From Candidatus Micrarchaeota archaeon (GTDB taxonomy: Archaea; B1Sed10-29; B47-G15): a DNA stretch of 64,000 nucleotides. Made by a program: the position numbers and the translations under genes. Position 1 is the first letter of the stretch; every line of letters begins with the position of its first letter. The stretch spans positions 7,996 to 71,995 of the forward strand of contig QMVG01000002.1 of assembly GCA_003660975.1 (NCBI GenBank). Reading direction: 5' to 3'. The notes under the pieces were generated by a model. The model worked only from the letters and a program-made list of their open reading frames with translations, was not told the DNA's origin and ran no database searches. This document shows positions 6,267-57,451 of this stretch, piece by piece.

Positions 6267-6300
6267 TAATAATTTATACTTCTGCTTACTATTTAACCTT

Positions 6301-17938: not shown

Positions 17939-18468
17939 TTTGCAGCCCTTATTTTCTCGAAACTTGAGAGAAGCTTAAATTTGGCTCCAGGCTGATTTTT
18001 TTCAATGTCTTCAAGCATTTGCATTATGTACCCTTCCATTTCAGTATTAACGCAGTTTTTCTTTCTTTTATATGTTATACCTTCTAATTCCGCATACAAT
18101 TCGTTTTCCCTTGCATAAAACCTGCTGAGGACATTTTTATTTTCATACGCTTGGCCTGTGATAAATGCCTTGAGGTAATCCTTTAAGCTGCACTCAATGT
18201 TAGAGGCATCAAGCAGGATGCTGTTCTCTTCATTGCTCATTTTGTAGTAATACTTTTTAAGGTAATGTTTTACAATTGCATTCTCAAGGAAACTGTCTTC
18301 TTTAACATTTACTTTTGTTTTCTTATTTATGCCTCTTTTAGTTAATTCAAGCTTCAGCCTCTTTTCATATACTTTGATAAAGTGTTCCTTACACAGGTGT
18401 TGGCTCATATATGGCAGATATATAACTGCCTTTCTTGCACAGCGGGAGCAGTTCATAAAATCAACCAA
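17923..18468 (-). CDS. Hypothetical protein with N-terminal Cys-rich (Zn-ribbon-like) segment
   Basis: N-terminal CSRC...C..H motif and 181 aa. No PP-loop or other catalytic motif recognised. Confidence 0.3.
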   Translation of the reverse strand: MVDFMNCSRCARKAVIYLPYMSQHLCKEHFIKVYEKRLKLELTKRGINKKTKVNVKEDSFLENAIVKHYLKKYYYKMSNEENSILLDASNIECSLKDYLKAFITGQAYENKNVLSRFYARENELYAELEGITYKRKKNCVNTEMEGYIMQMLEDIEKNQPGAKFKLLSSFEKIRAANYSSS

Positions 18469-21967: not shown

Positions 21968-22015
21968 TTTTTAAATATATAAATATAAAACAATATTGTT
22001 GTTTAAAAGACAACA
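21968..22015. promoter_or_regulatory. Divergent promoter region with TATA-like AT tract and inverted repeat TGTTGT-N7-ACAACA upstream of the TrmB-family regulator gene
   Basis: AT tract tttaaatatataaatataaaa (21968 to 21990), followed by the perfect inverted repeat tgttgt-ttaaaag-acaaca (21997 to 22015), 15 nt upstream of the ATG at 22030. This looks like a candidate autoregulatory operator. Confidence 0.35.
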
Positions 22016-22029
22016 TTTGAGATGGTCAT

Positions 22030-22761
22030 ATGTCTGATTTGGTTTCTAAGTTAAAAACACTTGGTTTTACAGATTACGAAGCAAAAGCATACATTGCTCT
22101 AGTTAGCTCTGGGGCTGCTTCTGTGACTGAGATAAGTCAAATATGCGATGTGCCTCGTTCCAACCTTTACTCTGTTTTGGAAAAATTAAATGAAAAAGGT
22201 TTTGTTGAAATTCAACGCGGAAGGCCTATAATGTTTCAAGCAGTGAAACCCTCAAAAGCGTTAAATGAGCAAGTAGACAAGCTGACAAAAAGCATAGAAA
22301 AAGCGAAGAAGGAGGCAATAAAGGAACTGGAAGCCATGATAAAGTCAACACAGAAGAACATAGAACCTGCACTGATATGGGCAGTTAAGGGCAGCTCTGC
22401 TGTTACAACCAGGTTAGCAGAGATGATAAAGCGCTCTAGAAAGGAGGTTCTGATAAATACCCCTTCTCTCTCATTGCTGAATGAGAATGTCGTAAAAGCA
22501 ATAAAAGAAGCCTCTGAAAGAGGAGTGAAGATAAAAGTGGTCACTCAGTCAACAAGAGGAATAGAACTATTTAGAAAAATATGCATAGTGAGAAGCAGGG
22601 ATAAGATATATGGTCTTGATGCTGTGGTTGATGAGAGGGAAGTACTTGTCGCTCCTGCTATGCCTGCAATTGCTGTTTGGGTAGATAACCCCACGATGGC
22701 TGCTCATGTGAAGGATTTTCTCAACCTTGTTTGGAAGGACTCAAACATAATAGGCAAGTAG
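22030..22761 (+). CDS. TrmB-family transcriptional regulator
   Basis: N-terminal LGFTDYEAKAYIALVSSGAASVTEISQICDVPRSNLYSVLEKLNEKGFVE is the canonical TrmB wHTH. 243 aa with a C-terminal effector domain. Sits directly upstream of the pilus genes. Confidence 0.75.
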   Translation: MSDLVSKLKTLGFTDYEAKAYIALVSSGAASVTEISQICDVPRSNLYSVLEKLNEKGFVEIQRGRPIMFQAVKPSKALNEQVDKLTKSIEKAKKEAIKELEAMIKSTQKNIEPALIWAVKGSSAVTTRLAEMIKRSRKEVLINTPSLSLLNENVVKAIKEASERGVKIKVVTQSTRGIELFRKICIVRSRDKIYGLDAVVDEREVLVAPAMPAIAVWVDNPTMAAHVKDFLNLVWKDSNIIGK

Positions 22762-22797
22762 TAAATTCTTATAAACGAGTAGTGATTTCTTAACAAT

Positions 22798-24300
22798 ATG
22801 GACTATTTGAAGAAGCTTGTAGACAGTGCTAAAGACACAGGAGTAAATCAAGCATCTACCAAAAAGACACTAGTAGCAAGCTATGGAGATGTCAAAATAT
22901 ATAAGATAGAGGGAGAAGCGCTTCTTCTTTATACTGTTCCGGTTGTGAAGCCTACAGGTCCTGAGAGAGAAATCATAGACACTTTGAAAGAAGCAGCAAC
23001 ACGTTTAATAAGCATAAGTCCTGAAGAGATAAGAGACCCAAAGCTCATGAGAGACATATACACACAGAGAGTGAAGGAGATTATCGAGTCAAGCCCAGAA
23101 CTAGGCATACCAAAGACGCGATTTGACTTTTATGCTGAAATGGTCGTTAGGGAAATGATAGGATATGGTTATCTAGACCCCTTAATTCACGATGACAAGT
23201 TGGAGGAAATAATGGTTATAGGAGCGCAGAAACCTGTCTATGTCTTTCATAGGGATTATGACATGATGAAAACCAACATTGTTTTTAGCACTGACAGCGA
23301 GATATACAACTTAATTTCCAGGATTGCGATGGGAGTGGGAAGGCGAATTGACAAGCAAAACCCCATATTAGATGCCAGATTGCCTGATGGCTCTAGGGTG
23401 AATGCCACGATAAAGCCAATAAGCTTGAATGGCTCAACCATAACTATAAGGAAATTTAGAGAGGATCCGCTAACTGTAGTTGATTTGATAAATAATGGAA
23501 CCATGGACTCCTATTTAGCTGCTTTTCTTTGGCTGGCAGTTGATGGTCTTTACAGTAAGCCTGCCAACATCCTCGTTTCAGGTGGCACAGGTAGTGGTAA
23601 AACAACCACCTTAAACGTACTGGCCAGTTTTATCCCAAGAGAGGAAAGGGTGGTGACGATAGAAGACACTGCTGAGCTAAAGCTTCCAATAGAGCACATA
23701 GTGAGGTTTGAGACGCGTCCTCCAGGGCTTGAAGGCACAGGCGAAATAAGTATGGATGCCCTTGTCAAAAATGCTTTAAGGATGAGGCCTGATAGGATCA
23801 TAGTAGGCGAGATAAGGCACGCTGAGGCCTTCACGCTTTTCACAGCCATGAACACAGGACATCAGGGTTGCATGGGAACAGTGCACGCTAATGACGCTTC
23901 AGAAACGGTAATTAGGTTGACAAACCCACCAATGAGTGTTCCGAAGATTATGCTTACCGCGCTTGACTTGATAGTGGTTCAGAGCAGGATAAGAGACAGG
24001 AGAAAAGGCACAATAAGGAGAGTTACAGAACTTGCAGAGCTTACTGCTGTGTCCAATGAAGGCGACGTTCATTTACAAACGCTGTTTTCATGGGATCCTG
24101 TCTCAGATAGTATAAATCATATGAAAATCAACTCACACTATCTCAAAGAGCTATCCAGATATGCGGGTATGTCTGTTGATGACATTGAGCTTGAAATAGA
24201 GAAAAGGAAACAGGTTTTAGAAGAGCTTACATCCAAAGGGATTAGAGACCTTAAAACTGTGTCTACATATCTAAACCGTTTTGAGGTAAGTAATAAATGA
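22798..24300 (+). CDS. Type IV pilus assembly ATPase (FlaI/TadA/VirB11 family)
   Basis: LDARLPDGSRVNATIKP...TIRKF, Walker A VSGGTGSGKTTTLNVL, Walker B/Asp box RIIVGEIRHAEA, His box GTVHAN. 500 aa. Confidence 0.85.
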   Translation: MDYLKKLVDSAKDTGVNQASTKKTLVASYGDVKIYKIEGEALLLYTVPVVKPTGPEREIIDTLKEAATRLISISPEEIRDPKLMRDIYTQRVKEIIESSPELGIPKTRFDFYAEMVVREMIGYGYLDPLIHDDKLEEIMVIGAQKPVYVFHRDYDMMKTNIVFSTDSEIYNLISRIAMGVGRRIDKQNPILDARLPDGSRVNATIKPISLNGSTITIRKFREDPLTVVDLINNGTMDSYLAAFLWLAVDGLYSKPANILVSGGTGSGKTTTLNVLASFIPREERVVTIEDTAELKLPIEHIVRFETRPPGLEGTGEISMDALVKNALRMRPDRIIVGEIRHAEAFTLFTAMNTGHQGCMGTVHANDASETVIRLTNPPMSVPKIMLTALDLIVVQSRIRDRRKGTIRRVTELAELTAVSNEGDVHLQTLFSWDPVSDSINHMKINSHYLKELSRYAGMSVDDIELEIEKRKQVLEELTSKGIRDLKTVSTYLNRFEVSNK

Positions 24301-25409
24301 CAGAAATAAAGAAACTAAAAAAAATTTTGGAAGCCGAGGATAGGAAAGAGAAAGAGCAGTCGCCATACCTGAACAGACAGTTGCTTTCTAAGATAATAAA
24401 GAGGATGGAAAAAAAATATGAAAAGGAGGGACTTAGCACCCCTGATTATGCTGCAAGAGAAAAAAAAGCAGAAAAGCTTAAAGTAATCACAGGCTCTCCA
24501 AAGGAATTGCTCTTGTCAAAAAAGCCAATAGTAAGGTTTCTAATTAGCATATATATGTTATCTTCTCCAATCAGTTATTACCTTCTAACATTTCTTGAGA
24601 AAATTTTAGGCAAGAGCTTGGAAAAAGACCTTAAAGCTTCTGGCATGATGTATTCCCAGAAGCAATACCTTGCATTGACTATGTCGCTTGTGTTTATCCT
24701 GTGGGTTTCATTTTTAATCCCTCTGACAGCACTGACGCTGCTCTTTCATTTTTCTCTATTCTACCTGCTTCTTTCAGCCATTTTAATCCCTTTGCTTGCT
24801 TTTTCAATTGCATTTTTACTACCAAGCACAAGGGCCAGCAAAATAGCAAATGAGATTGACAAGGAGCTTCCATTTGCATTGAGACATATGAGCATACAAA
24901 TACGGGCTGGAGTTGGAATATACAATTCCATGGAGTCAATAGCTGTGTCTGATTATGGCTATTTGTCAAAAGGTTTCAAATTCGTTCTCAGCAATATCCA
25001 AAAAGGCATGCCAACTGAAGAAGCTTTAGAGTCGTGGGCATATATGACACGGTCAGAAGCCCTTCAAAGGGTTATAAGCCACATAGTTAGAGCTCTAAGA
25101 ACAGGCGGCAATCTCTCTGATATTATGCTAAGCATTTCAGAGGACATATCATTTGAAAGAAGAATGAAAATATCTGACTTTGCCGAGAAACTCAACCTCA
25201 TGGCTCTTTTTTTGATGATGGTGGCCATAGTAGTACCTGTTATGGTAGGCATACTGACTGCCATTGCATCAATGCCCTCTCTTAGCTCTTATGTAAATGT
25301 CTTTTCTATATTCTCACTAACTTTTCTGCAGTTGCTGTATTTTCTGATAAGCCCAAGCCTTATATTGCTCTTCCTTTACTTCATAAAGATCTCAGATCCA
25401 GGTGCTTGA
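24297..25409 (+). CDS. Pilus platform membrane protein, N-terminal T2SSF-domain half (TadB/FlaJ-like)
   Basis: Cytoplasmic K/E-rich N-terminus, TM helices, and a T2SSF-type soluble segment (LPFALRHMSIQIRAGVGIYNSMESIA). It ends at TGA 25407 to 25409, in the same frame as the next ORF. Confidence 0.65.
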   Translation: MTEIKKLKKILEAEDRKEKEQSPYLNRQLLSKIIKRMEKKYEKEGLSTPDYAAREKKAEKLKVITGSPKELLLSKKPIVRFLISIYMLSSPISYYLLTFLEKILGKSLEKDLKASGMMYSQKQYLALTMSLVFILWVSFLIPLTALTLLFHFSLFYLLLSAILIPLLAFSIAFLLPSTRASKIANEIDKELPFALRHMSIQIRAGVGIYNSMESIAVSDYGYLSKGFKFVLSNIQKGMPTEEALESWAYMTRSEALQRVISHIVRALRTGGNLSDIMLSISEDISFERRMKISDFAEKLNLMALFLMMVAIVVPVMVGILTAIASMPSLSSYVNVFSIFSLTFLQLLYFLISPSLILLFLYFIKISDPGA

Positions 25410-26264
25410 ATGAAGGCATTAGAAAAGTATCAAGAAATAGCCCATTTCGCAGGGATTTCACAGCCCTGGCTTTTGTTGGGAGGAAGTATTTCAATAGGCG
25501 CAATACTGTTTTTCCTTTTGTTGTCCTATGACCCAATACTCTCAGTGCTTGTATTACTTATCTCCTTAGATGTATCTTTCGGCCTGCCTTTTTTGCTCGC
25601 AAGTAGGAAGGTTGAGAAGATTGAAGACAGCTTGCCAGATGTATTGCAGCACATAAGCACCACACTGAAAGCAGGCTCCACAATAGAGATGGCTCTAAAG
25701 GAGGTCTCCTTAGTTGACTATGGCCCAATAAGCCAAGAGATGAAACGGATGCTGGACGAAATAAACAAAGGCAAGACATTTGAAGAGGCCTTCAACGACT
25801 TTGCTGAAAGTTCTCACTCAAAACTTGTTAAGAAGATTGCAATCATAATCTCAGCCGCAAGGCGAAGCGGTGGGGCTCTATTACAGACTTTGAGCCTCAC
25901 AGCAGAGGATATAAGAGCTGTTAACCGCTTGAGACGGGAGAGAAAAAGCAAAACACTTATGCAGTTCTTGTTTTTGATAGCAGCAAGCTCTATCGTAGCT
26001 CCTTTTATATTTGGCATAGTGCGGGCTGTTCTGTCAACACTTCTTTCAATAAGCCCTTTTACCAACACAGATACATTGCAAGCCTTTGATTTTACATTTA
26101 AGCTATTTCTGGTATTGCAAGGTACTCTTACAACTATTGGAGCTGTTATGGTGAAAGAAGGCAAATTAGAAAAAAGTGCGCTTTACATCCCATTTTCTCT
26201 CTTCTCTATTTACGTGATATACAGCCTCGTGTCTGTCCTCTTTATGTCTTTAATAGGTGTTTGA
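25410..26264 (+). CDS. Pilus platform membrane protein, C-terminal T2SSF-domain half (TadC/FlaJ-like)
   Basis: Second T2SSF-like segment (LPDVLQHISTTLKAGSTIEMALKEVS) flanked by TM helices. Its ATG immediately follows the in-frame TGA of the upstream half. Confidence 0.65.
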   Translation: MKALEKYQEIAHFAGISQPWLLLGGSISIGAILFFLLLSYDPILSVLVLLISLDVSFGLPFLLASRKVEKIEDSLPDVLQHISTTLKAGSTIEMALKEVSLVDYGPISQEMKRMLDEINKGKTFEEAFNDFAESSHSKLVKKIAIIISAARRSGGALLQTLSLTAEDIRAVNRLRRERKSKTLMQFLFLIAASSIVAPFIFGIVRAVLSTLLSISPFTNTDTLQAFDFTFKLFLVLQGTLTTIGAVMVKEGKLEKSALYIPFSLFSIYVIYSLVSVLFMSLIGV

Positions 26265-26571
26265 TATGAAAGCCCAAACTGCTATGGAATACCTAGTCCT
26301 GACAGCTGTTGTGTTGACCATTGTAACTGTTGTAAGTTATATGATACTTACGGCATCAAAAGCAAGTGGTCAGACAGCCTCAGAGATGACCTGCAGGGCA
26401 ACAGCCTCCTCATATAAGTTAGCTATAATGGCAGACCCAAATGCCTGCGATGCAGAATGCGAAAAGGCCTGCGAAAAAGCCTGCGTGGACAGCAATGGCT
26501 ATGATGTAATTGGAGGCGAAAAAGGTTGCGGAACAGGTTGTCAGGCTTGCAAAAGCGGGACATTGCATTAA
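26257..26571 (+). CDS. Class III signal peptide (type IV pilin-like) protein, Cys-rich
   Basis: MKAQTAMEYLVLTAVVLTIVTVV is a K-A|Q prepilin-type N-terminus followed by a hydrophobic helix. The C-terminal domain carries 10 Cys, including CDAECEKACEKAC. The true start is probably the Met of MKAQ. Confidence 0.55.
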   Translation: MFDMKAQTAMEYLVLTAVVLTIVTVVSYMILTASKASGQTASEMTCRATASSYKLAIMADPNACDAECEKACEKACVDSNGYDVIGGEKGCGTGCQACKSGTLH

Positions 26572-26594
26572 TCTTTTTATAGAACAATGCTCTT

Positions 26595-26921
26595 ATGTTC
26601 TCTGGTGTTATCATGAAGGCACAGGGCTCACTTGAATACCTAATCATATTAGCAGCTGTATTGGCAATAGGAGCTATAGTGGTTTTGTTTGTGACAGATG
26701 CTTTTAGCCAGACAAAAACAGCTGCGAGCGTTGAGAATTGTAGAAATGCACTTACAAAAGTATATCAAGAATACAAACTTCACGGGTCTGTTGCCAAAGA
26801 CATTTCGGACAGCTGCTATGAAATCTGCAAGGATTTCGTTTATGCATCCTCACCAGCAACAGACTTTTGTGATGGGGAAGGTTTGACAGAAGACATAATA
26901 AACCACATAAGCCAATCCTAA
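26595..26921 (+). CDS. Class III signal peptide (pilin-like) protein
   Basis: MKAQGSLEYLIILAAVLAIGAIVVL prepilin-like N-terminus with 4 Cys in the globular part. The true start is probably the Met of MKAQ. Confidence 0.55.
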   Translation: MFSGVIMKAQGSLEYLIILAAVLAIGAIVVLFVTDAFSQTKTAASVENCRNALTKVYQEYKLHGSVAKDISDSCYEICKDFVYASSPATDFCDGEGLTEDIINHISQS

Positions 26922-26953
26922 TCGTTAAATATTCTTTTTGATACTATTCTCCT

Positions 26954-27904
26954 ATGTATGCTTTTCTAGCATTTGCACTGTTGCTTACAGCAAGCTATTT
27001 TGACTTAAAGGATAGGAGAATACCTCCCACGCTAAGCTACTCATTCATCTTGATTGGACTCACAGCCCACCTATTAGAAGGAATATCTCTCCAATATATC
27101 TATATCGTGTTTGCCTCTTTTTTCTTTGCCTACGCACTTTATAAGTTTGGGGTGTGGGCAGGGGGAGACTTCAAACTATTCGTGGCGCTTTCCCTCCTAC
27201 TGCCCACATACAAATCTATTGACTTCTTTTCATTTTATGTGCTGTTTTTTGCTGTGCTTGCCGTTCTGCCTTTTCTACTTGTATTTTTTGCGTACAAGCT
27301 TTTTCTTTCGAAAGAGTTCAGGAGAGGGGCGAAGGCAAAAGCTAAATCATGGCTAAAGCGTTCACTTTTTATCGCTATAATCGCTACAGCCTCTTATGAA
27401 CTTTCATCATTTTTCACATTGCCTCCTGAGTTATCTGTGCTCTTCTTTTTCATGCTTTTCTTGCTTAAGCAAAGTGGCTCTTTCATTGCTGTAGTTTTTC
27501 TATTAAACAGCATAATCAGAAATCCATCATATGTCTTAACAGTCATTTACTTGTTTTTAGTTTCCCTGCTTATTTCCATAGCTATCTACTCATTTAAGGT
27601 TTTGAGAAAAACTGTTCTCAGAAAAAAGCTGCCCATAGCCAAGATAAAGGAAGGCATGATACCTGCCCAGCACTTAATAAAGAAGGGAAAGAGGTATTAT
27701 CTAAAAGAAGCAGAATGGCGCGACTTATTCCATAAAGATAATATCGTGATAGACTCTATGAAGGCCAGAGGGCTGAACAGGGATGAAATCCTATTGATTA
27801 AGAAATCAGGCATAAAAGAAATAGAAATAAAGAAGTCACTTCCTTTTGTCCCCTTCATGTGCCTGGGATTTGTTCTAGCTCTCCTTAGTTTATTTATATT
27901 TTGA
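26954..27904 (+). CDS. Prepilin/preflagellin peptidase (A24 family, PibD/FlaK-like)
   Basis: Polytopic membrane protein with the two catalytic Asp contexts (YFDLKDRRIP and VWAGGDFKLF). It sits inside the pilin array. Confidence 0.6.
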   Translation: MYAFLAFALLLTASYFDLKDRRIPPTLSYSFILIGLTAHLLEGISLQYIYIVFASFFFAYALYKFGVWAGGDFKLFVALSLLLPTYKSIDFFSFYVLFFAVLAVLPFLLVFFAYKLFLSKEFRRGAKAKAKSWLKRSLFIAIIATASYELSSFFTLPPELSVLFFFMLFLLKQSGSFIAVVFLLNSIIRNPSYVLTVIYLFLVSLLISIAIYSFKVLRKTVLRKKLPIAKIKEGMIPAQHLIKKGKRYYLKEAEWRDLFHKDNIVIDSMKARGLNRDEILLIKKSGIKEIEIKKSLPFVPFMCLGFVLALLSLFIF

Positions 27905-27919
27905 CTGCCTTATTCTATC

Positions 27920-28087
27920 ATGGATGACAGGGCCCAGGTAAGCACGGAGTATCTAATAATACTCGCAGTGTCTTTGGTTCTAGCAGCAGTTGTGACTCTT
28001 TTAACAGTGAACCTCTTTAGCGTGAAGTCATCCGTGAAGGAATTGATAGAAATATACTACAAACGCGCCTTGCAACTGGTGACTTAA
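27920..28087 (+). CDS. Minor pilin-like protein (55 aa, class III signal peptide)
   Basis: Not in the ORF track (<60 aa). Sequence MDDRAQVSTEYLIILAVSLVLAAVVTLLTV..., stop TAA. Tandem with the next gene. Confidence 0.5.
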   Translation: MDDRAQVSTEYLIILAVSLVLAAVVTLLTVNLFSVKSSVKELIEIYYKRALQLVT

Positions 28088-28255
28088 ATGGATGATTGCG
28101 CACAGGTTTCAATAGAATATATGTTCACAGCAGCTATTTTTCTTATAATTGCAGCCATTCTATCTGTTTACGTAGAGAGGATATTTGCAATGAAAGACAC
28201 GATTTTCAAGACAAACAGCATATATTCAAAATCACTCTCAAACCTATTAAAGTGA
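28088..28255 (+). CDS. Minor pilin-like protein (55 aa, class III signal peptide)
   Basis: Not in the ORF track. Sequence MDDCAQVSIEYMFTAAIFLIIAAILSVYV..., stop TGA. Paralogue of 27920 to 28087. Confidence 0.5.
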   Translation: MDDCAQVSIEYMFTAAIFLIIAAILSVYVERIFAMKDTIFKTNSIYSKSLSNLLK

Positions 28256-28259
28256 TATT

Positions 28260-28640
28260 ATGAAAGCTCAGCTGACATTGGAATACCTTATTATTTTTGT
28301 AATCTTACTGCTACTGTTTTCAAATGTTTCTATGGATTTAATGGGTTCTTCAATGAGCTCTGCCCTGCAGATACAGAAGCAACAGATAATGAAAGCAGCC
28401 AATCTCTCTTTAGAGTCAGCTGCATCCAAGCTTCAGTATCAGGGAGAAGGGGCCAGGATATTAGTAAAGATAAGAGCAGCACCTGATTGCAATTACATAT
28501 TTGAGGAGAAAAGAGCATACGCTGAATGCAGGAGCGGAACTTATGATATAGGTCCAAATCCTTTACCAGCTGATTTGGTGTACTCTGAAAAGACAATAAA
28601 GGAGAATGAGTTGGATGTTGTTGAAATTAGTAAAGAGTAA
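28260..28640 (+). CDS. Class III signal peptide (pilin-like) protein
   Basis: MKAQLTLEYLIIFVILLLLF N-terminus, 126 aa. Confidence 0.55.
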   Translation: MKAQLTLEYLIIFVILLLLFSNVSMDLMGSSMSSALQIQKQQIMKAANLSLESAASKLQYQGEGARILVKIRAAPDCNYIFEEKRAYAECRSGTYDIGPNPLPADLVYSEKTIKENELDVVEISKE

Positions 28641-28962
28641 GGGACAGCTTTCAATTGAACTTTTGTTTATCATTTCAATACTGATTCTCCTATGCTCATC
28701 CATAACACTGGACGCATTGGCCACTTCATCACGAATGTTTGACATATCACACGTTAAAGACGCTGTAAATACTTATCTTTACAAAAAAGGCATTGAAGAC
28801 AAAGCATGCCTTTCAATGAGGCTTTCTGCGTTGTCAGTAAAGCAAAATACAGTTTACGTCAGGATAGATGGAGACAAAAGCTGCAAGCCTAGCTCTGATG
28901 AACTGCTTTATTTAATAAAAAAAGAAAACCCTTCTTTTGCGCTTTCCGTGGAGGTGATTTAA
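28606..28962 (+). CDS. Class III signal peptide (pilin-like) protein
   Basis: KSKGQLSIELLFIISILILL prepilin-like segment near the N-terminus. 118 aa. The start is uncertain. Confidence 0.45.
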   Translation: MSWMLLKLVKSKGQLSIELLFIISILILLCSSITLDALATSSRMFDISHVKDAVNTYLYKKGIEDKACLSMRLSALSVKQNTVYVRIDGDKSCKPSSDELLYLIKKENPSFALSVEVI

Positions 28963-29499
28963 TTGGAATGGACTAAAACTAATGTTATTATACTGCTTCA
29001 GTCAGCAGTCCTATTCGCTGTCATTCTCGCAGTAGTTGCGAGTTTTTTGTCAGAACCATTTTTACTGCTTCTGGACATGGTTAGCTTGATTATGCTTGGT
29101 TATGGCCTTTGCTTAGTATATAAAAATTGGAGAAAGGAGTTCAAAACATATGCATTGCTTTTCAGTGTTCTCTTTTTTATAACAGTAGCTTTCCCAATTT
29201 TGATAATATCCAAATTTATAAACAGTTTCAATACCTCTTTATTACTTCTCTTTTTGCTGCTTTTCTATTTTATCTTGAAGGCTTATTTGACACCAAAGCA
29301 GCTGGAAGGTATAGTAGTAATGGCAGACAAAGAGAGAGCAGTGGTGCATATAGATTACAATATCCTTTTGTCATTACCTGCAGGGGATTATGTTGTCAGA
29401 AATAATGGAGCCAAGAAGGGACATAAAGTTCTGCTGTCTTATAAAAAGAGCATATTCAGGACTGTAAAGCCAGAAGCCGTGATCAAGGTGATAAAATGA
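28963..29499 (+). CDS. Membrane protein (about 4 TM) with small C-terminal soluble domain, embedded in the pilin array
   Basis: Four hydrophobic helices, then a roughly 70-aa beta-rich-looking tail (GIVVMADKERAVVHIDYNILLSLPAGDYVVRNNGAKKGHKVLLSYKK). No family recognised. Confidence 0.4.
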   Translation: MEWTKTNVIILLQSAVLFAVILAVVASFLSEPFLLLLDMVSLIMLGYGLCLVYKNWRKEFKTYALLFSVLFFITVAFPILIISKFINSFNTSLLLLFLLLFYFILKAYLTPKQLEGIVVMADKERAVVHIDYNILLSLPAGDYVVRNNGAKKGHKVLLSYKKSIFRTVKPEAVIKVIK

Positions 29500-29870
29500 A
29501 GAAGGGCATGTTTAGCATAGATTTTATTATGGCCCTTGTGATAGTTAGCTTTGTAGTTTTCTTTATACAAGAGCATACATATAGGAGTTTGAGACACAGC
29601 GAAGAGTTTGGAAGATTGGAGCAGCTCTCAAGCATGACATCTTCTGTTGCATCTCAGCTAAATGCTTTTTATGCCCTATCACCAGAAAAGGGAGACTTCT
29701 TTAATTTATTACCCCCTAAAATAAGCAGTTTCAGCAGAACCCAGGATTGCACTGTCTTGAAATACGCTTCGTCTCTGACACTTAGTTGTGGAGATTCTTC
29801 CCTCTCCTTTCCACTTTGTTTTGACGATGCATCTTACGAGGTTGGTGAAAAGGCGGTTGAGAAGGTATGA
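29496..29870 (+). CDS. Pilin-like protein
   Basis: MKKGMFSIDFIMALVIVSFVVFFI N-terminus, which is K-G followed by a hydrophobic helix. 124 aa. Confidence 0.45.
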   Translation: MKKGMFSIDFIMALVIVSFVVFFIQEHTYRSLRHSEEFGRLEQLSSMTSSVASQLNAFYALSPEKGDFFNLLPPKISSFSRTQDCTVLKYASSLTLSCGDSSLSFPLCFDDASYEVGEKAVEKV

Positions 29871-30268
29871 AAGCACAGATATTTTCATTGGACGCCATGC
29901 TTGCCATTGTAGCTCTTACAGTTATCGTGGGCTATTTTTCGTGGTCCCTTGAGAATACATTACATAGCGCAGATATTTCGGAGTATGAGAGCTTGCAGCG
30001 TATGGCAGATGATTGGGCACAGCTGGCTGTTAAAAGAATCTTGGCGCAAAGAGACGAACCAAATAAGGTAGACAGCTCAAGGCTTAGTGATCTTGCAGCG
30101 CAGATGTCAGAACTGCTTGTTTCACCATATGACTTTGAGCTGCATCTTGGCAATTCTAAGCTGGGTGGGGACTGCAGTTCAAAGCAAAATGTGGTTTCTG
30201 TCAGGCGATTGGTTTATGACAAGGACTCAGCAGAAGGGAAAGTATTTGAATTGAGGTTATGTGTATGA
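29867..30268 (+). CDS. Class III signal peptide (pilin-like) protein
   Basis: MKAQIFSLDAMLAIVALTVIVGYF N-terminus. 133 aa. Confidence 0.55.
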   Translation: MKAQIFSLDAMLAIVALTVIVGYFSWSLENTLHSADISEYESLQRMADDWAQLAVKRILAQRDEPNKVDSSRLSDLAAQMSELLVSPYDFELHLGNSKLGGDCSSKQNVVSVRRLVYDKDSAEGKVFELRLCV

Positions 30269-30564
30269 AAGGCTTGCTCTTTAGCGTTGATTCGGTGTTG
30301 GCATTGTTGCTGTTGTTTGTAATTAGCTCAACATATCTTGTTATGCTGGAAGTGCAGGAAAAAAACAAAGACAACGTTTTGATGCTTAGCAGGTTGGCAA
30401 GAGACATAATAGACATAAGGTATTACCAGCCTTCATATTCGCCGCCAGACTGGCTAAAAGAGGAAAACTGCCAGCACAATGTGGTTTCTCTGGACTATTT
30501 TGTTTACGATAGCAGCTCTAATAAGGTAATTAAAAAAACTCAAAAGGTGTGCTTCAATGAATAG
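30259..30564 (+). CDS. Pilin-like protein
   Basis: MKGLLFSVDSVLALLLLFVISSTYLV N-terminus. 101 aa. Confidence 0.45.
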   Translation: MCMKGLLFSVDSVLALLLLFVISSTYLVMLEVQEKNKDNVLMLSRLARDIIDIRYYQPSYSPPDWLKEENCQHNVVSLDYFVYDSSSNKVIKKTQKVCFNE

Positions 30565-31036
30565 GGCCTTCGTTATCTCCTCATCTGTCTTCATTCTGCT
30601 GTTAGCCAGCTTATTTCTCATAAACTTTATTATGCTGACCTCTACATACCAGTCATCTGCTGATGAAAGGAAGCTGATGCTGGATTCCCTTTACAATGTT
30701 TTAACAGATGCAAAGCGCCTCTTATTCTACGCAGGAGAGAATGTGCTTGATGATGCTGTGGCGGACCATATAGGACACTGCCCTAAAGACGCGATTCTTG
30801 AGGCATGGGTAGATAACGCATTGCAAAACAGCATTGCAGAAATGAACAGCTTTTTGAGAGATAAAAACATAAGGCTTAGCTTATCCTATGACGGGCCCTT
30901 TGTCAGTAAAACTGGGCTGTGCTCTTATAAGGTGAGCTTAACAAATGTTAAAATTACTGCTGTTAAGCAGATGGGAGACATAACAGAAGCAAAGCTCAGC
31001 CACAGTTTGCCAGACATAAACAGGAATTATCCTTGA
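30557..31036 (+). CDS. Pilin-like or pilus-associated secreted protein
   Basis: N-terminal hydrophobic helix (FVISSSVFILLLASLFLINFIM), 159 aa. Translationally coupled to the upstream gene. Confidence 0.4.
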   Translation: MNRAFVISSSVFILLLASLFLINFIMLTSTYQSSADERKLMLDSLYNVLTDAKRLLFYAGENVLDDAVADHIGHCPKDAILEAWVDNALQNSIAEMNSFLRDKNIRLSLSYDGPFVSKTGLCSYKVSLTNVKITAVKQMGDITEAKLSHSLPDINRNYP

Positions 31037-31090
31037 CTAACCTATAACCGTTGGTAAATTCTTAAAAAAATAACGAAAAACAAACGTAGC

Positions 31091-31423
31091 ATGCGGCTTT
31101 TAACAGGCGTTTATATGCTGACTGCATTGTTTTCCTTATCTCTTATCTACTTTTTCTCACCCCAGCTTTCATACAAGGCAGTTAGTGCTGAGGAGCTTTA
31201 CAGCAACTGTGAAGGCAGCGTGCAGGCAACTGTTCTTCTTCAAGATGTCTTCATATCAAAAAATGGAAACCGAATAGGTATCGTGTCAGATAGCCCTCGC
31301 ACTTTTGTGCTGCTCAATGATATTTACGCCACAAAAGGGGACCGCTTGCTGTTGAAAGCCAGAGCCTCTCGCTTTAGAAAGGCCTGTTGGCTTTTTCCTG
31401 AAAAGGTGAAATGGCTTGATTGA
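31091..31423 (+). CDS. Hypothetical secreted protein (last gene of pilin array)
   Basis: N-terminal signal or anchor (LLTGVYMLTALFSLSLIYFF). 110 aa. Confidence 0.35.
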   Translation: MRLLTGVYMLTALFSLSLIYFFSPQLSYKAVSAEELYSNCEGSVQATVLLQDVFISKNGNRIGIVSDSPRTFVLLNDIYATKGDRLLLKARASRFRKACWLFPEKVKWLD

Positions 31424-32552
31424 CTTTGCTTTTTTCTTTCTCGGCATTTTTATTGGGATTTTAGTTGGCTTCATTCCAGGACTCCATGTGAATAGCATTC
31501 TGCCTTTTCTTTTTCTCACTTCAGGGTATCAAATGCACTGCCTTGTTATCCCTATGTCTGTTGCCTTTGTCTTTTCATCCTTCTTTCCAGCAGCACTTCT
31601 TGGGCTGCCTGACGAAGACAACGCATTATCTGTTTTGCCTGCTCACAGGTTGTTAGCAAGGGGAAAGGCATACACTGCGTTTAGGCTCTATTTTTTAGGC
31701 GCTCTGACCTCGTCTTTCTTTTCATTCATCTTTCTGGTTTTCTTTTTGATATTTCTGAAGGACTTCTATCAAGCGCTAAAGCCCATTATTCCTCTCATTT
31801 TGCTTTTCATACTTGTTGTTATGCTATTTTCTAACAAATACGCTTTCATAGTCATAGTGCTGTCTTCTGCACTAGGATATATGACAGTTAATTACAACAC
31901 AATCCTTCCACTGCTTACAGGTTTCTTTGCAATGAGCAACCTTATCCTCTCACTGTTTTCCACGGGCAGACAGCCAACGCAAAGGCTGAAAAGTGAAATC
32001 TCAATAAGCAGGTTTGACATAATTCATAGCTCTCTTGTGGCTTCTGTTCTGGCCTCTTTCTTCTCCCTTATTCCGGCAATTTCTTCTGGCATATCTGCTA
32101 CTGCTTCCAAGATTTTCGGGCGTTTCAATACAGAAGAGTTTCTAGTATTGATAGGCTCTACAAATATGGCATATATGGTTTTTTCATTTTTTACACTGTC
32201 TTTGCTGGGCATAAGCAGAAGCGGTTCTGCTGTTTTATTATCAAACGTAGAGAATGTTAGCGCTTTTTTTATGGCTGCTTTGGTACTCCTCTCCTCTTTG
32301 CTAAGTTTTCTGATATTGGAGTCCGTTTACAAAAGACTGCTGCCTTTGTACACAAAGCTTAAACAGAAAAGCATAAACATTGCAGCGGCGTTTGTACTAC
32401 TTCTTATAGTCTTTTTAACTTCTTCTTACTTCGGCCTTCTCGTTTTCTTGGCATCTACCAGCATAGGCCTGCTCTCTAATGAATTAGGAGTGAAACGAAT
32501 AAATTGCATGTCTGCCCTAATTTTTCCAACGGTGCTGTTGATATGGCAGTGA
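31416..32552 (+). CDS. Polytopic membrane protein, TctA/DUF112-like
   Basis: The GFIPGLHVNS motif near the N-terminus and at least 10 predicted helices resemble the tripartite tricarboxylate transporter TctA-type (DUF112) family. Confidence 0.45.
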   Translation: MIDFAFFFLGIFIGILVGFIPGLHVNSILPFLFLTSGYQMHCLVIPMSVAFVFSSFFPAALLGLPDEDNALSVLPAHRLLARGKAYTAFRLYFLGALTSSFFSFIFLVFFLIFLKDFYQALKPIIPLILLFILVVMLFSNKYAFIVIVLSSALGYMTVNYNTILPLLTGFFAMSNLILSLFSTGRQPTQRLKSEISISRFDIIHSSLVASVLASFFSLIPAISSGISATASKIFGRFNTEEFLVLIGSTNMAYMVFSFFTLSLLGISRSGSAVLLSNVENVSAFFMAALVLLSSLLSFLILESVYKRLLPLYTKLKQKSINIAAAFVLLLIVFLTSSYFGLLVFLASTSIGLLSNELGVKRINCMSALIFPTVLLIWQ

Positions 32553-32902
32553 AAATAAAGAGAGAAGTGATTGGAAACTTATTGGAGCTATGCAGGGCTG
32601 CCTATCCCAACGAGGTAGGCGGTATGCTCCTAGGGAAGGAGATAATAGATGATTTTGTTTTAACACCAAGTGAATATGGACCCTCTTCAATAATAACGAG
32701 AATGCAGGACATGCCAATATACACTAACATCGCAGGCAGTTTTCATTCCCATCCAACAGGAGACAATAGGCCATCCAGGGCAGATTTAAACTTTTTCTCC
32801 AAGACAGGCAAATACCACCTTATAATTGCGTATCCATATACTTTAAATAAGGTGGCAGCTTATGATGTTAAGGGCAGAGCTGAAGAATTGGTGATAATAT
32901 GA
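32543..32902 (+). CDS. JAMM/MPN+ family metalloprotease
   Basis: E(VGG) ... HSHPTGDNRPSRADL matches the JAMM motif E-x(n)-H-x-H-x7-S-x2-D. Start placed at the internal Met (MAVKIKREV). The track ORF starts 39 nt earlier, inside the upstream gene. Confidence 0.65.
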   Translation: MAVKIKREVIGNLLELCRAAYPNEVGGMLLGKEIIDDFVLTPSEYGPSSIITRMQDMPIYTNIAGSFHSHPTGDNRPSRADLNFFSKTGKYHLIIAYPYTLNKVAAYDVKGRAEELVII

Positions 32903-55134: not shown

Positions 55135-55314
55135 ATGGACAATAGGGCCCAAATTTCTATAGAGATGCTCCTCGTGGCAGGGGCTTTGTTCGCCGTGGCA
55201 GTTCTTGTTGTCAGCAGCCTGACGCAGAGTTCAAAAGAAGCAAGTGATAAGATGAGCGCCAAGGTAAGCGAGGTTTTGGAGAAAATTGACAAGATGACAG
55301 AAGGTGCTTCCTAA
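55135..55314 (+). CDS. Minor pilin-like protein (59 aa, class III signal peptide)
   Basis: Not in the ORF track. Sequence MDNRAQISIEMLLVAGALFAVAVLVVSSL..., stop TAA overlapping the next ATG (TAATG). Confidence 0.5.
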   Translation: MDNRAQISIEMLLVAGALFAVAVLVVSSLTQSSKEASDKMSAKVSEVLEKIDKMTEGAS

Positions 55315-55481
55315 TGGACGATAAAGCGCAGATTAGCCTTGAAATGCTCTTGTTGGCAGCTGCGTTGATAGCTGTGGCTGTCTTGTTTCTGAGCGGTGTT
55401 AGGACTTCTTCAAAGTCATTCCAATCAAAGATGACTGCCAACAGCAAGCAGGCCCTGTCAAAATTGGGGCAAATCAAATGA
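55314..55481 (+). CDS. Minor pilin-like protein (55 aa, class III signal peptide)
   Basis: Not in the ORF track. Sequence MDDKAQISLEMLLLAAALIAVAVLFLSG... It is a tandem paralogue of the upstream gene. Its stop overlaps the next ATG (ATGA). Confidence 0.5.
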   Translation: MDDKAQISLEMLLLAAALIAVAVLFLSGVRTSSKSFQSKMTANSKQALSKLGQIK

Positions 55482-55876
55482 GGGGTCAGCTGAGCCTTGA
55501 AATGTTATTGCTGATGTCTGCAATGATGGGAGCGTTAGCAGTTATCCTGCCTTTATATAACTCACTATTTTCTGCTTCCAACACCGTTCTTGAAAAACAA
55601 GGGGCTCTGGAAATGGCAAGGAGCTTTAAACATTTATGCTCAATGCTTGATGTTATGGGGAAGGAGTCCTCGGCTAACTTTCTTTTTAATTCTCCATGCG
55701 ATTATGAGATTAGGAAAAAAGAGAATTCAGCAGAAATCAGCTTTGGAGAAGGAAGTATCAGCTTTGAGCTGGAGGAAAACTGTGAGCTGCCAACCATGGT
55801 TGGAAGGGGCAAGCACAATTTTTTTGTTAAGAAAGAGGGGAGCAAGGTTATTGTTTATGACAGACAAGCAGGTTAA
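55478..55876 (+). CDS. Class III signal peptide (pilin-like) protein
   Basis: MRGQLSLEMLLLMSAMMGALAVILPLY N-terminus. 132 aa. Confidence 0.55.
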   Translation: MRGQLSLEMLLLMSAMMGALAVILPLYNSLFSASNTVLEKQGALEMARSFKHLCSMLDVMGKESSANFLFNSPCDYEIRKKENSAEISFGEGSISFELEENCELPTMVGRGKHNFFVKKEGSKVIVYDRQAG

Positions 55877-56153
55877 AGCTCCCATCAATCTTTTTTCTTG
55901 AGAAGCTGATGCCTGTCTCGCAGTCCTCATCAAATGCCACAGAGACACCAACATGATTCATCAGCTTTTTTACGCAGCTTTTGCTTAACTCAGCTTTGAG
56001 GTTGCAGACCTCTATCGCATCTTGCGTCATTTGGAACAAGATTTCATTGTTTAGGTCAGGGAGTGGCTGCCTTGACATAATCATAACAGACAATATGACC
56101 ATAACTAAGAAAAATGCCAGCAAAGCGTCTGTTGTGAACAGAAAAGCTTTCAT
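55848..56153 (-). CDS. Pilin-like protein
   Basis: MKAFLFTTDALLAFFLVMVILSVMIM N-terminus. Start placed at the internal Met. The track ORF begins 30 nt upstream at 56183. Confidence 0.4.
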   Translation of the reverse strand: MKAFLFTTDALLAFFLVMVILSVMIMSRQPLPDLNNEILFQMTQDAIEVCNLKAELSKSCVKKLMNHVGVSVAFDEDCETGISFSRKKIDGSFNLLVCHKQ

Positions 56154-56596
56154 TCGCATTTGCCCCACAGCTCCACTACACATTCTTTATTTCCACATAG
56201 CGCGAACCTTCTTAGCGCCAGCCCCTCCTTTTTTCCAGCTGAGAAAAGCTCACGCCCATTTATCTCATAAATAAACAGACCCCAATGCCTCGGCAGTGCC
56301 AGTTCCCTGCCCAAATCGTCATGTTTTTTAAGCATTTCAATGCTTTTTTTGGATAACTGGTGGTGTTTTACGTTATTGGCCATTTTTACAGCAAGACCTA
56401 TGCCATTGTCCTCAGATGATGTGGAGATTAGCAGCTCTGAGGCATCTATCAGCGCCCTCTGGCTTTCGAAACAATTATATGATTGTTTTATAGATGCATA
56501 TCTTTGCGTAATGAATATTTGGAATAGAGAAATGGACAGGATTAAGACAAAGAAAGCAATTAACACATCACTTAGGAATATCTGGGCCTTTCGCAT
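56150..56596 (-). CDS. Class III signal peptide (pilin-like) protein
   Basis: MRKAQIFLSDVLIAFFVLILSISLF N-terminus. 148 aa. Confidence 0.55.
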   Translation of the reverse strand: MRKAQIFLSDVLIAFFVLILSISLFQIFITQRYASIKQSYNCFESQRALIDASELLISTSSEDNGIGLAVKMANNVKHHQLSKKSIEMLKKHDDLGRELALPRHWGLFIYEINGRELFSAGKKEGLALRRFALCGNKECVVELWGKCE

Positions 56597-56865
56597 CCTA
56601 ACACCTTTTTTGATAGCATGTCTTTCCCCAACTTTAGATATATCTTATCACCTTGCTTGCCAGCGTAGGCAAAATGAAAATCGCTGTCAAATAAGAGCCT
56701 ATTGCAGGCAGAGGCGTAGTAGCTCAACTCTGCCTCTTTTTTAAGCTTTGACAGGCCTGAAGCCAGCATAGTGTTGCTTTTCTCAGCTGTGAATATTATC
56801 ATTGAGATAACGCTCGCTATTAATGCCACAGAAATTATAAACTCAAGGCTAAGCTGCCCTTTCAA
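56572..56865 (-). CDS. Class III signal peptide (pilin-like) protein
   Basis: MKGQLSLEFIISVALIASVISMIIF N-terminus. 97 aa. Confidence 0.55.
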   Translation of the reverse strand: MKGQLSLEFIISVALIASVISMIIFTAEKSNTMLASGLSKLKKEAELSYYASACNRLLFDSDFHFAYAGKQGDKIYLKLGKDMLSKKVLGCERPRYS

Positions 56866-57451
56866 GCACTTCCCCTCCCCTTATGATTAGGTGAACCGTT
56901 TTACCTCCTATCTTCTTCTCAGCAACAAAGGCTGGTTCAGGCATCTTCATTTCGGATTTTAGCCTGCTGGCCACTTCATTGAGAATTCCCCTGACCTCTT
57001 TTATTGACTTTAAGTATGCAGGGCAAGCAGTGATATCCAAGAGAGGCGGACACTTTTCGCTGATTTCAACATTGTTGTTGTTAAAACCTATGAAGAGCAT
57101 GCACTGGGCATAACTCATTTTTTCGAAAGGCGGGACAAAGAAAAGGATATTAGCGCCATCAGTATACGCTATGCCTGTTTTTGCATCCAGACCAGAAGCC
57201 CACTCGTATATTTCATGACACAGCCGGACATCATCAATATACACATCACCAGTTCTCATTTCAAACGCTTCTTCAGCAATATCAAAAAAAGCGTCTTCTA
57301 TTTCATACCTAAACTCATCAAAGGCCAGCCTTTCGTTTATGTTTTCCTTTACCTGCCACATCGCCTCACTGATTCCTTCTTCCTGCTCTAAATAGAGCAG
57401 CACAAATGGGCTTATTACAATAAGCAGTGATATGCTTAGGAAGGCTCTCAT
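56849..57451 (-). CDS. Secreted or pilus-associated hypothetical protein (first gene of minus-strand pilin operon)
   Basis: N-terminal hydrophobic helix (MRAFLSISLLIVISPFVLLYL) followed by an acidic soluble domain. 200 aa. Confidence 0.4.
   Translation of the reverse strand: MRAFLSISLLIVISPFVLLYLEQEEGISEAMWQVKENINERLAFDEFRYEIEDAFFDIAEEAFEMRTGDVYIDDVRLCHEIYEWASGLDAKTGIAYTDGANILFFVPPFEKMSYAQCMLFIGFNNNNVEISEKCPPLLDITACPAYLKSIKEVRGILNEVASRLKSEMKMPEPAFVAEKKIGGKTVHLIIRGGEVLERAA

Follow-up and report, generated by a model that had tools for sequence, protein, structure and literature searches.

One group of archaeal type IV pili has been described under three names, i.e., 'clade 1' (Makarova, Koonin & Albers 2016, PMC4858521), 'System 1' (Sivabalasarma & Albers 2026 preprint) and Epd-like (Denise et al. 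2019, PMC6668835). Its published hallmarks are a platform encoded by two genes of a single T2SSF domain each, a dedicated peptidase with nine transmembrane segments (TM), EppA, in pilin gene context, Gln at position +1, at least five minor pilins, and major pilins of about 70 residues without a globular domain (PMC4858521; Sivabalasarma & Albers 2026 preprint; PMC6668835). FleN/MinD-type ATPases and DUF2341 adhesins are frequent in these systems but not universal. The Epd-like clade gave rise to the bacterial Tad pili (Denise et al. 2019, PMC6668835), and a report on the micrarchaeon Mia14 describes a clade 1 locus, its 'key components shared by many Ca. Micrarchaea' (PMC5498576). In Methanococcus maripaludis, the Epd pilus genes, MMJJ_13020 (a single-TM OB-fold protein) and MMJJ_13030 (a TctA-like protein that has 11 TM) were each found essential for natural transformation in a transposon screen and with clean deletions. 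A TctA-like homologue is essential in Methanoculleus thermophilus too, and the TctA-like protein has been proposed as the archaeal DNA transporter; archaea have neither TctB nor TctC (PMC10133366). Here, we analyzed a type IV pilus locus in a 64-kb stretch of DNA (the window, to which all coordinates refer) from a metagenome-assembled genome (MAG) of a Candidatus Micrarchaeota archaeon, a member of the DPANN archaea. At a probability of roughly 80%, we take this locus to be a clade 1/Epd-like pilus joined to an OB-fold and TctA-like pair, together with which it may also capture and import DNA.

Genes were inventoried from a six-frame listing of open reading frames (ORFs) together with Pfam and NCBIfam profile searches, and the locus was compared with related loci, numbered L002 to L158. 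The pilus block spans 22798–31036 on the plus strand and contains an ATPase, two platform genes, an A24 peptidase, a DUF2101 protein, and ten proteins with signal peptides (Table 1). Public gene calls for the identical contig, a metagenome contig of 128 kb, list the same genes, one small ORF being locus tag DRN74_01685. The genomic setting is archaeal, with Tes, an archaeal ThrRS editing domain, GatDE, RFC, and ABCE1. An earlier note, made from the DNA alone, had described a co-directional plus-strand array with a TrmB regulator, a T2SSE ATPase, two T2SSF genes, and an A24 peptidase, and all of these were confirmed by Pfam where the note had placed them. Moreover, the T2SSE, T2SSF (twice), Peptidase_A24 with Arc_PepC, Class_IIIsignal, and DUF2101 profiles all matched.

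The hallmarks of the published group recur in this block. The platform is encoded by two contiguous genes with one PF00482 stretch each, a long-form A24 peptidase (about nine TM, EppA) lies in pilin gene context, Gln+1 pilins of the PF04021 type accompany short pilins of 55 residues (27920–28255), and at least five minor pilins are found together with a 4-TM COG4025 protein. Judged from these genes, the block is very probably the Micrarchaeota version of the clade 1/System 1/Epd-like type IV pilus, a sister of bacterial Tad/Flp pili. The earlier note had proposed an undescribed variant because of the number of pilins, the embedded peptidase, and the 4-TM protein. Each of the features that it listed as unusual is a published hallmark of the group, however, and with this pilus locus a family already described gains one more member.

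The ATPase is identical to an NCBI entry named 'CpaF family protein [Candidatus Micrarchaeota archaeon]', and more than 100 cluster representatives with 58–75% identity come from MAGs of Micrarchaeota, Diapherotrites, Nanoarchaeota, and other DPANN archaea. An ATPase from Methanobrevibacter is 55% identical to it; Methanobrevibacter ATPases are placed in clade 1 in Table S2 of Makarova et al. (PMC4858521). The nearest bacterial matches are of the CpaF/Tad type (41–46% identity), and a search of the PDB returned AfGspE (A. fulgidus GspE, 272 bits), CpaF (265 bits), and FlaI (219 bits).

In the peptidase, both catalytic Asp motifs are present (YFD17LKDRRIP and GGD72FKLF), along with about 9–10 hydrophobic segments, which were counted from hydropathy in this and in the DUF2101, OB-fold, and TctA-like proteins. 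The enzyme has the long EppA form and is not of the PibD/FlaK type named in the earlier note. A PDB sequence search with the peptidase gave nothing at E ≤ 1, in a library whose content was not checked for FlaK. The peptidase gene is embedded at the same place, between pilin genes, here and in six relatives (L003, L076–L079, and L081). The DUF2101 protein has four uncharged segments, and its orthologues in L077 and L078 carry PF09874. Table S1 of Makarova et al. (PMC4858521) lists arCOG05786 as 'clade_1, 4 TM, COG04025', and the protein is this known clade 1 accessory.

Class III signal peptides were sought as (K/R)(A/G) ahead of a stretch of 19 or more hydrophobic residues, with our own re-implementation of a FlaFind-like pattern. 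Nine of the ten pilin and pilin-like ORFs between 26266 and 31036 in Table 1 have N-termini of this type. In the tenth, at 28088–28255, the helix begins with QVSIEY as in the others and Cys replaces Arg/Lys at position −2. At least eleven such genes had been claimed; ten stand, and the eleventh (31091–31423) has no (K/R)(G/A) site and encodes an OB-fold protein instead. PF04021 (Class_IIIsignal) matched two ORFs above the gathering score and four more below it. Six ORFs have Gln at +1 within the motif (K/R/C)(A/G)-Q..(S/T).E(Y/L), and there are eight pilin-like ORFs besides the two short ones. NCBIfam gave no names for the small ORFs. In a relaxed six-frame scan, class III-like N-termini were found in 16 genes that form two clusters (26.2–31.0 kb and 55.1–57.5 kb). 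Elsewhere in the 64 kb, the scan produced only about five scattered false positives, and the clustering is therefore far above chance.

Alignment of the N-termini with those of relatives separated two classes of signal. Class A follows (K/R)(A/G)↓Q-x-(S/T)-x-E-(Y/F), the arrow marking the predicted cleavage site. Class B comprises four conserved, consecutive families, i.e., B1 with KG↓xx(S/T)LD, B2 with (A/G)↓QIF(S/T)LD, B3 with G↓xxF(S/T)xD, and B4 with (A/G)↓(F/Y)xI(S/T)G, which lacks the acidic residue. No Pfam family was detectable in the four B-type proteins (29496–31036). B4 is a candidate tip subunit, by analogy with the GspK-type minor pilins. In a search of 1.84 billion proteins, only 45 representatives of the B2 family were found at E ≤ 1e-3, so that B2 is a small, fast-evolving family; a word-indexed homologue search with the window's B2 protein (p133) found only itself.

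The 55-residue pilin at 27920–28087 is a candidate for the major, Flp/EpdE-like subunit. Orthologues of the short-pilin pair, 41–53% identical, are found in L076, L077, and L079. At position −2, these orthologues and the tandem twin always have Arg or Lys; the 28088–28255 product, with its Cys, may be poorly processed or decaying. The pilin at 26266–26571 has relatives in L077 and L080 that carry large C-terminal domains on the same N-terminus, the large pilin-fused proteins of relatives being a 712-residue β-propeller protein (L077) and a 2430-residue LamG protein (L080). Because of these fusions, the family is consistent with an adhesin-bearing pilin and an adhesive role. Its nine Cys residues lie in a C-terminal part of about 60 residues with repeated CxxxC-like spacing (ACDAECEKACEKAC...CGTGCQAC), and a Cys about 35–40 residues past the cleavage site is conserved in the relatives. 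This pattern could reflect a disulfide- or metal-stabilized structure.

Two pilin-like proteins were modeled with AlphaFold2 (AF2) from alignments that held one window paralogue only. For 28260–28640 (p126), the model reached a predicted local distance difference test score (pLDDT) of 70 and shows a helix (residues 3–59) followed by six strands, a pilin-like 'lollipop'; a Foldseek comparison of this model with the PDB had a best E of 0.08, i.e., no significant fold match. The B2 model (p133, pLDDT 48) was unusable. The structural check that the earlier note had suggested yielded one moderate lollipop model and no confirmation of the pilin fold.

Table 1. Features of the pilus locus, the adjoining genes, and the second pilin cluster in the window. 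Arrows mark predicted cleavage sites.
Feature	Position	Strand	Evidence and remarks
TrmB-family transcription regulator	22030..22761	+	PF01978 1e-23; PF11495 4e-11
BRE/TATA-like promoter motif GTAAATTCTTATAAA	22761..22775	+	begins 37 nt 5' of ATPase ATG
CpaF/TadA-like pilus assembly ATPase (probably clade 1, arCOG01819-type)	22798..24300	+	PF00437 1.6e-52
Platform protein, first half-size TadB/TadC-like	24297..25409	+	one T2SSF domain, PF00482 3e-19; 4-nt overlap with ATPase gene; orthologues in all related loci
Platform protein, second half-size TadB/TadC-like	25410..26264	+	one T2SSF domain, PF00482 6.7e-20; zero gap after preceding gene
Pilin, MKA↓QTAMEY, Cys-rich C-terminal part (9 Cys)	26266..26571	+	PF04021 27.7 bits (gathering 23.7); strict FlaFind-like match
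Pilin, MKA↓QGSLEY	26613..26921	+	PF04021 28.7 bits, above gathering; orthologues MKGQGSLEY/MKAQGSLEY in L076, L078, L079, L080
Long-form prepilin peptidase (EppA-like, arCOG02300-type), 316 residues	26954..27904	+	PF01478 8.8e-12; PF06819 Arc_PepC 5e-06
Short pilin, 55 residues, without globular domain, MDDRA↓QVSTEY	27920..28087	+	PF04021 21 bits, sub-threshold; strict match; TATA-like box of its own
Short-pilin tandem paralogue, 55 residues, MDDCA↓QVSIEY	28088..28255	+	PF04021 15.5 bits; Cys at −2
Pilin with globular domain, MKA↓QLTLEY	28260..28640	+	strict match; orthologues in L076, L077, L079, E down to 1e-25
Pilin, KSKG↓QLSIEL	28615..28962	+	PF04021 20.1 bits; strict match
DUF2101/COG4025 membrane protein, 4 TM and small β-rich C-terminal domain	28963..29499	+	PF09874 22.3 bits (gathering cut-off 22)
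Minor pilin-like B1, MKKG↓MFSID, Asp at +5	29496..29870	+	relaxed class III pattern; no Pfam match; motif (K/R)KG↓xxT/SLD kept in L076, L077, L078, L079
Minor pilin-like B2, MKA↓QIFSLD	29867..30268	+	orthologues KG↓QIFTLD in L003, L076, L077, L078, L079
Minor pilin-like B3, MKG↓LLFSVD	30265..30564	+	orthologues (K/R)G↓xxF(S/T)xD in L003, L076, L077, L079
Minor pilin-like B4, MNRA↓FVISSS, no acidic residue at +5/+6	30557..31036	+	FlaFind-like match; orthologues (K/R)G↓(F/Y)xI(T/S)G likewise non-acidic
BRE/TATA-like promoter motif GTAAATTCTTAAAAA	31054..31068	+	begins 37 nt 5' of OB gene ATG
Single-TM, signal-anchored OB-fold protein, not a pilin	31091..31423	+	no (K/R)(G/A) site; one N-terminal hydrophobic segment; β-rich domain
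Archaeal TctA-like permease, 378 residues, about 11 hydrophobic segments	31416..32552	+	PF01970 5.6e-36; 8-nt overlap with OB gene
Prok-JAB (MPN+) domain protein	32543..32902	+	PF14464 1.3e-13; 10-nt overlap with TctA-like gene; weak RadC-like match E = 0.035
Second pilin cluster, seven paralogous genes, convergent	55135..57451	both	no ATPase, platform or peptidase nearby
Second-cluster pilins, plus strand	55135..55314, 55314..55481, 55478..55876	+	MDNRAQISIEM, MDDKAQISLEM, MRGQLSLEM
Second-cluster pilins, minus strand	56849..57451, 56572..56865, 56150..56596, 55848..56153	-	MRAFLSIS, MKGQLSLEF, RKAQIFLSD, MKAFLFTTD

The pilin array is followed by two neighboring genes, one for a single-TM OB-fold protein and one for a TctA-like protein of about 11 TM, the combination known from natural transformation. 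The idea of an adhesion or DNA-uptake pilus, voiced in the earlier note, was reasonable, and DNA uptake gains real support from this pair at the 3' end, which the note had missed, the TctA-like gene lying just past its limit. A hidden Markov model (HMM) of the 31091–31423 orthologues matches the OB protein of L083 (Hadarchaeales) at 2.5e-06, and the equivalent OB genes in L084 and L085 carry PF01336. The TTG start of the TctA-like gene is backed by an N-terminus, MIDxxxG..PG(L)H(V/I)N, that is conserved in L078. The nearest named homologue, from Thermococcus sp. 4557, has 30% identity over 97% of the query.

We surveyed 80 metagenome loci with TctA-like relatives (27–48% identity); denominators in the following are the loci with enough sequence or flank. 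An OB gene lies directly upstream of the TctA-like gene in 55 of 67 loci. A JAB gene follows it in 10 of 63, a DUF2101 gene is found upstream in 7 of 54, and 10 of 42 have core genes of type IV pili (ATPase, TadC or A24, scoring 100 bits or more). The OB–TctA pair comes after the pilin array in the window and in L076, L077, L079, and L081. In L078, it lies inside the array, in the order DUF2101-OB-TctA-JAB followed by B-type pilins, and in L132 it stands directly after four class A pilins and a DUF2101 gene. A DUF2101 gene is directly upstream of OB–TctA in L078, L099, L104, L132, and L158. The TctA-like gene of L133 abuts a 51%-identical ATPase and a TadC gene. A 320-residue multi-TM protein of L003 is weakly TctA-like (blastp E = 0.09, HMM E = 0.0097, no Pfam match) and is a probable TctA homologue inside the array. 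The JAB gene follows TctA in L076, L078, L079, and L104, and is inside the pilin array in L078. Among the papers searched, none links TctA-like genes with DPANN pilus loci. From this arrangement, joint action of the OB/TctA pair and the pilus in DNA uptake is suggested at slightly less than even odds.

A transglutaminase-core protein is encoded divergently beside the OB–TctA pair in the two Hadarchaeales-type loci L083 (7997–9316, minus strand) and L086 (7742–9214, minus strand); in L083, small ORFs and a T2SSE ATPase come after it. Transglutaminase-family peptidases have been linked to clade 1 pili (Makarova et al., PMC4858521).

The proposed survey of related genomes showed that six of the eight related loci compared retain the order of the pilus genes, three of them with variations. 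One-to-one orthologues of essentially every gene stand in the same order in L076, L077, and L079, and the same kit is found rearranged in L078 (Diapherotrites), L081, and L003. L080 deviates. Its ATPase and platform genes are accompanied by two pilins, the LamG protein, and a short peptidase; no DUF2101, OB or TctA-like gene was found within the stretch covered.

A single operon, as had been suggested, is an over-reading of the gene spacing. Most junctions do overlap or couple, i.e., 11 of the 16 from the ATPase gene to position 31423 overlap or are at most 1 nt apart. However, gaps of 15–54 nt precede the ATPase, the second pilin, the peptidase, the short pilins, and the OB gene, with a TATA-like box about 25–37 nt upstream of each ATG, and the overlaps extend beyond the pilus genes. 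The spacing and boxes together make several transcription units likely. A 15-nt motif, GTAAATTCTTAWAAA, has just two exact copies in the 64 kb, each starting 37 nt from an ATG, that of the ATPase and that of the OB gene. They are probably a pair of promoters with transcription factor B recognition element (BRE) and TATA box, and the shared motif may reflect co-regulation of the two genes. We rejected it as a specific operator, given that relatives have TATA-like boxes at the same distance without the extended identity; those upstream of the ATPase are at the matching position in L076–L081.

The TrmB regulator at the head of the locus had been counted as part of the system. Its membership is doubtful, since it is not a conserved neighbor: TrmB is not next to the ATPase in any of eight related loci (L002, L003, and L076–L081), two of which (L077 and L079) have a TrmB gene about 10 kb upstream on the other strand. 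As a pilus regulator, it thus has no comparative support, and its adjacency to the ATPase is unique to the window. In the window and in L077, the TrmB gene is instead divergent from that of the tetraether synthase Tes, and the block from TrmB to ThrRS in L077, when inverted, equals the window arrangement. The intergenic region from which Tes and TrmB diverge holds an inverted repeat, TGTTGT-N7-ACAACA (22007–22025, plus strand), with an A/T-rich TATA-like stretch on one side and the trmB start codon on the other. This repeat may be a TrmB operator and suggests autoregulation at most.

Further conserved neighbors were noted on the same side. In five of six related DPANN loci (L076 and L078–L081), the gene directly upstream of the pilus ATPase, on the same strand, encodes ThrRS (threonyl-tRNA synthetase), and this position is kept despite differences in domain type, with a TGS/SAD type in L081 and an enzyme without editing domain in L079. 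ThrRS and the ATPase are separated in L077 by an ACT-domain gene on the minus strand; the window ThrRS (18461–20317, minus strand) is nearby and inverted. Tes itself (20375–21946, minus strand; NCBIfam equivalog, 713 bits, above cut-off) has homologues near the pilus locus in L076 and L077. Its presence is notable, given that the lineage is usually thought to depend on host lipids.

The second pilin cluster encodes two Gln+1 pilins of about 55 residues, a pair of larger class A pilins, and three proteins that resemble class B, with 21–26% identity to their first-cluster paralogues. It is probably served by the machinery of the first cluster. A second, lone T2SSE ATPase gene was found at 6169–7821 (plus strand), with 46% identity to the pilus ATPase over 384 residues and no adjoining platform gene; it could encode a second motor, either for the second pilin cluster or for retraction.

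Several observations weigh against a clade 1 pilus that also takes up DNA. The strict form of the FlaFind-like pattern is failed by the four B-type and two A-type proteins, and neither AF2 nor the fold search positively identified a pilin fold. In 22030–34080, Pfam detected neither a MinD/FleN or FlaH/KaiC-like ATPase nor a DUF2341 adhesin, in contrast to the methanococcal and thermococcal model. Nor was a nuclease or other DNA-processing gene seen beside the locus; nuclease, MinD, and PC4 were sought among the unassigned ORFs of the window, and none was found. The likeness of the OB–TctA pair to MMJJ_13020/13030 is drawn from Pfam family, architecture, adjacency, and the Thermococcus homologue. 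The gene overlaps reach past the JAB gene as far as apgM, a housekeeping gene, and tight packing is hence a property of the genome and no proof of co-function. Wider synteny is also kept, with ThrRS upstream and JAB and apgM downstream, and the adjacency of pilus and OB–TctA genes could hence partly reflect inherited gene order. Such conserved flanks would equally be expected if the locus encoded a pure adhesion or host-attachment pilus, its OB, TctA-like, and JAB genes being unrelated syntenic neighbors and the TctA-like protein a small-molecule transporter. Bacterial TctA proteins are tricarboxylate permeases, and the OB–TctA pair stands without a type IV pilus gene nearby in L084, L085, L086, and 32 of the 42 metagenome loci (no core gene within about 10 kb). 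The ten loci that have such genes come mostly from related DPANN lineages and are therefore not independent. Epd pili mediate surface attachment in M. maripaludis (Sivabalasarma & Albers 2026 preprint; PMC6668835), and ARMAN/Micrarchaeota contact their Thermoplasmatales hosts via pilus-like structures (PMC5498576). We nevertheless consider adhesion alone unlikely. The pair is inside the array in L078 and probably also in L003, and in L132 it directly follows pilins and DUF2101; at least three rearrangements thus left it together with the pilus genes, and DUF2101, a published clade 1 accessory, directly precedes it in five loci. Moreover, Methanococcus genetics ties the same trio of functions together, and archaea have no TctB or TctC (PMC10133366). 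Adhesion and DNA uptake are also not mutually exclusive.

Other explanations concern the nature of the filament. One machinery could build two filaments under different conditions, a thin fibre of 55-residue pilins and another from the Gln+1 pilins of about 100–130 residues or from the 55.1–57.5 kb cluster. Two pilus types have been proposed from pilin diversity in the description of System 1 (Sivabalasarma & Albers 2026 preprint). The window has 17 pilin-like genes in two clusters, each with a pair of about 55 residues and a B-type set, and the lone CpaF-like ATPase and the TATA-like boxes ahead of individual pilin genes would fit as well. In M. maripaludis, however, the major pilin is likewise encoded outside the main locus and a single pilus type is known, and the larger pilins are equally well explained as minor subunits; we therefore regard two filaments as improbable. 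The NCBIfam scores of the ATPase could point to an archaellum, or to a bindosome or secretion pseudopilus. FlaI is the best match (339 bits) and outscores TadA (254 bits), BasE of the bindosome reaches 193 bits, and many relatives in the Joint Genome Institute (JGI) database are labelled 'flagellar protein FlaI'. However, FlaI and TadA are both below their cut-offs (550 and 373, respectively), and FlaI and BasE (cut-off 1000) are far below theirs. Archaellin, FlaF/G/H, FlaC/D/E, and FlaX had no Pfam or NCBIfam match in any ORF, FlaJ models gave at most 54 bits against cut-offs of 400–570, and the profile searches found no substrate-binding protein with a class III signal. The platform is split into two genes instead of the single-gene FlaJ, the peptidase is of the long EppA form and not FlaK/PibD, and DPANN genomes generally lack archaella (PMC5498576). 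The archaellum reading is hence effectively ruled out, as the earlier note had held, and the chance of any of these systems is negligible.

For the clade 1/Epd-like pilus with its OB–TctA pair, we infer subunit roles, processing, adhesion, and DNA uptake from gene content, family assignments, and conserved arrangement. In the proposed mechanism, prepilins would insert into the membrane and be cut after (K/R)-(A/G) by the EppA-like peptidase, leaving Gln or a hydrophobic residue at +1. The CpaF-like ATPase, as a hexamer, would then lift the subunits via the two TadB/TadC-like platform proteins into a thin filament, made mainly of the pilins of about 50 residues without globular domain (27920–28255). 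The four B-type proteins (29496–31036) might prime or cap this fibre, with B4 lacking the acidic residue as bacterial tip subunits do, and the larger Gln+1 class A pilins would decorate it or act as minor subunits. Attachment is the probable function of the filament, likely to a host cell in this episymbiont lineage. The fibre might moreover deliver DNA to the OB-fold protein and the TctA-like permease, perhaps together with the DUF2101 protein. Retraction might be driven by the same ATPase, if this is bifunctional like Caulobacter CpaF, or by the CpaF-like second paralogue, but either is speculative.

We tentatively suggest that in Micrarchaeota, Diapherotrites, and related DPANN archaea the Epd-like pilus, DUF2101, a membrane-anchored, DNA-binding OB protein, and the TctA-like channel, perhaps also JAB, form one consolidated 'competence' cluster. 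In this cluster, extracellular or host DNA would be caught by the pilus, handed to the OB protein at the membrane, and translocated by the TctA-like protein. The pilus locus alone changes little; its physical link to the OB-fold/TctA-like pair could matter. To our knowledge, a single Methanococcus genetic screen has provided the sole candidate for the DNA importer that serves natural transformation in archaea. A pair that is contiguous with or inside Epd-like arrays is gene-neighborhood evidence that was previously missing, since the Methanococcus genes are unlinked. If the suggestion is true, this would be independent comparative-genomic evidence for TctA-like proteins as the archaeal ComEC counterpart, and nucleotide-auxotrophic DPANN cells would gain nucleotides and genes from captured DNA. 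It predicts that host-dependent, nucleotide-auxotrophic archaea are naturally competent DNA scavengers, with parallels in competent Candidate Phyla Radiation (CPR) bacteria and in the Tad-dependent DNA uptake of Liberibacter.

With bacterial Tad/Flp (type IVc) pili, the window locus shares an ATPase 41–46% identical to CpaF/TadA, a platform split into TadB and TadC, and Flp-like pilins of about 50 residues with Glu-Tyr at +5/+6. It differs in having no RcpA, TadZ, TadD, TadG or outer membrane, in an archaeal long-form peptidase with Arc_PepC, and in Gln as the +1 residue. Pfam and NCBIfam searches detected no secretin RcpA, TadZ, TadD, TadG, TadE/F pseudopilins (PF07811) or short TadV peptidase. 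Tad ATPases can power extension as well as retraction, and some bacteria use Tad pili to take up DNA. Within the same phylum, the locus MIA14_0170-0177 of Mia14, 'Ca. Mancarchaeum acidiphilum' (Golyshina et al. 2017, PMC5498576), belongs to the same Methanococci/Methanothermobacteria/Thermococci-type group of type IV pili and comes without an archaellum; the likeness is drawn from its description, which mentions no OB/TctA-like pair in the locus.

The M. maripaludis Epd pilus has in common with the window an ATPase, in the latter probably of the CpaF type, two single-T2SSF platform genes, a long-form A24 peptidase among pilins, Gln+1 pilins with QxSxEY, a very short major pilin, many minor pilins, and the COG4025/DUF2101 accessory. 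The hosts differ, a DPANN episymbiont lineage here and a methanogen there, and the window locus has no MinD/FleN or FlaH-like ATPase, DUF2341 adhesin or transglutaminase. In M. maripaludis, the genes are split into epdJKL, the eppA-epd locus, the distant major pilin gene epdE, and the OB/TctA pair, whereas in the window they form one array. Like MMJJ_13020/13030, the window pair consists of a signal-anchored single-TM OB gene and an adjacent TctA-family gene of about 380–400 residues, without TctB/TctC and alongside an Epd-type pilus in the genome. While the Methanococcus pair is far from the pilus loci, that of the window is contiguous with the pilin array, or inside it in relatives, and is followed by a JAB gene.

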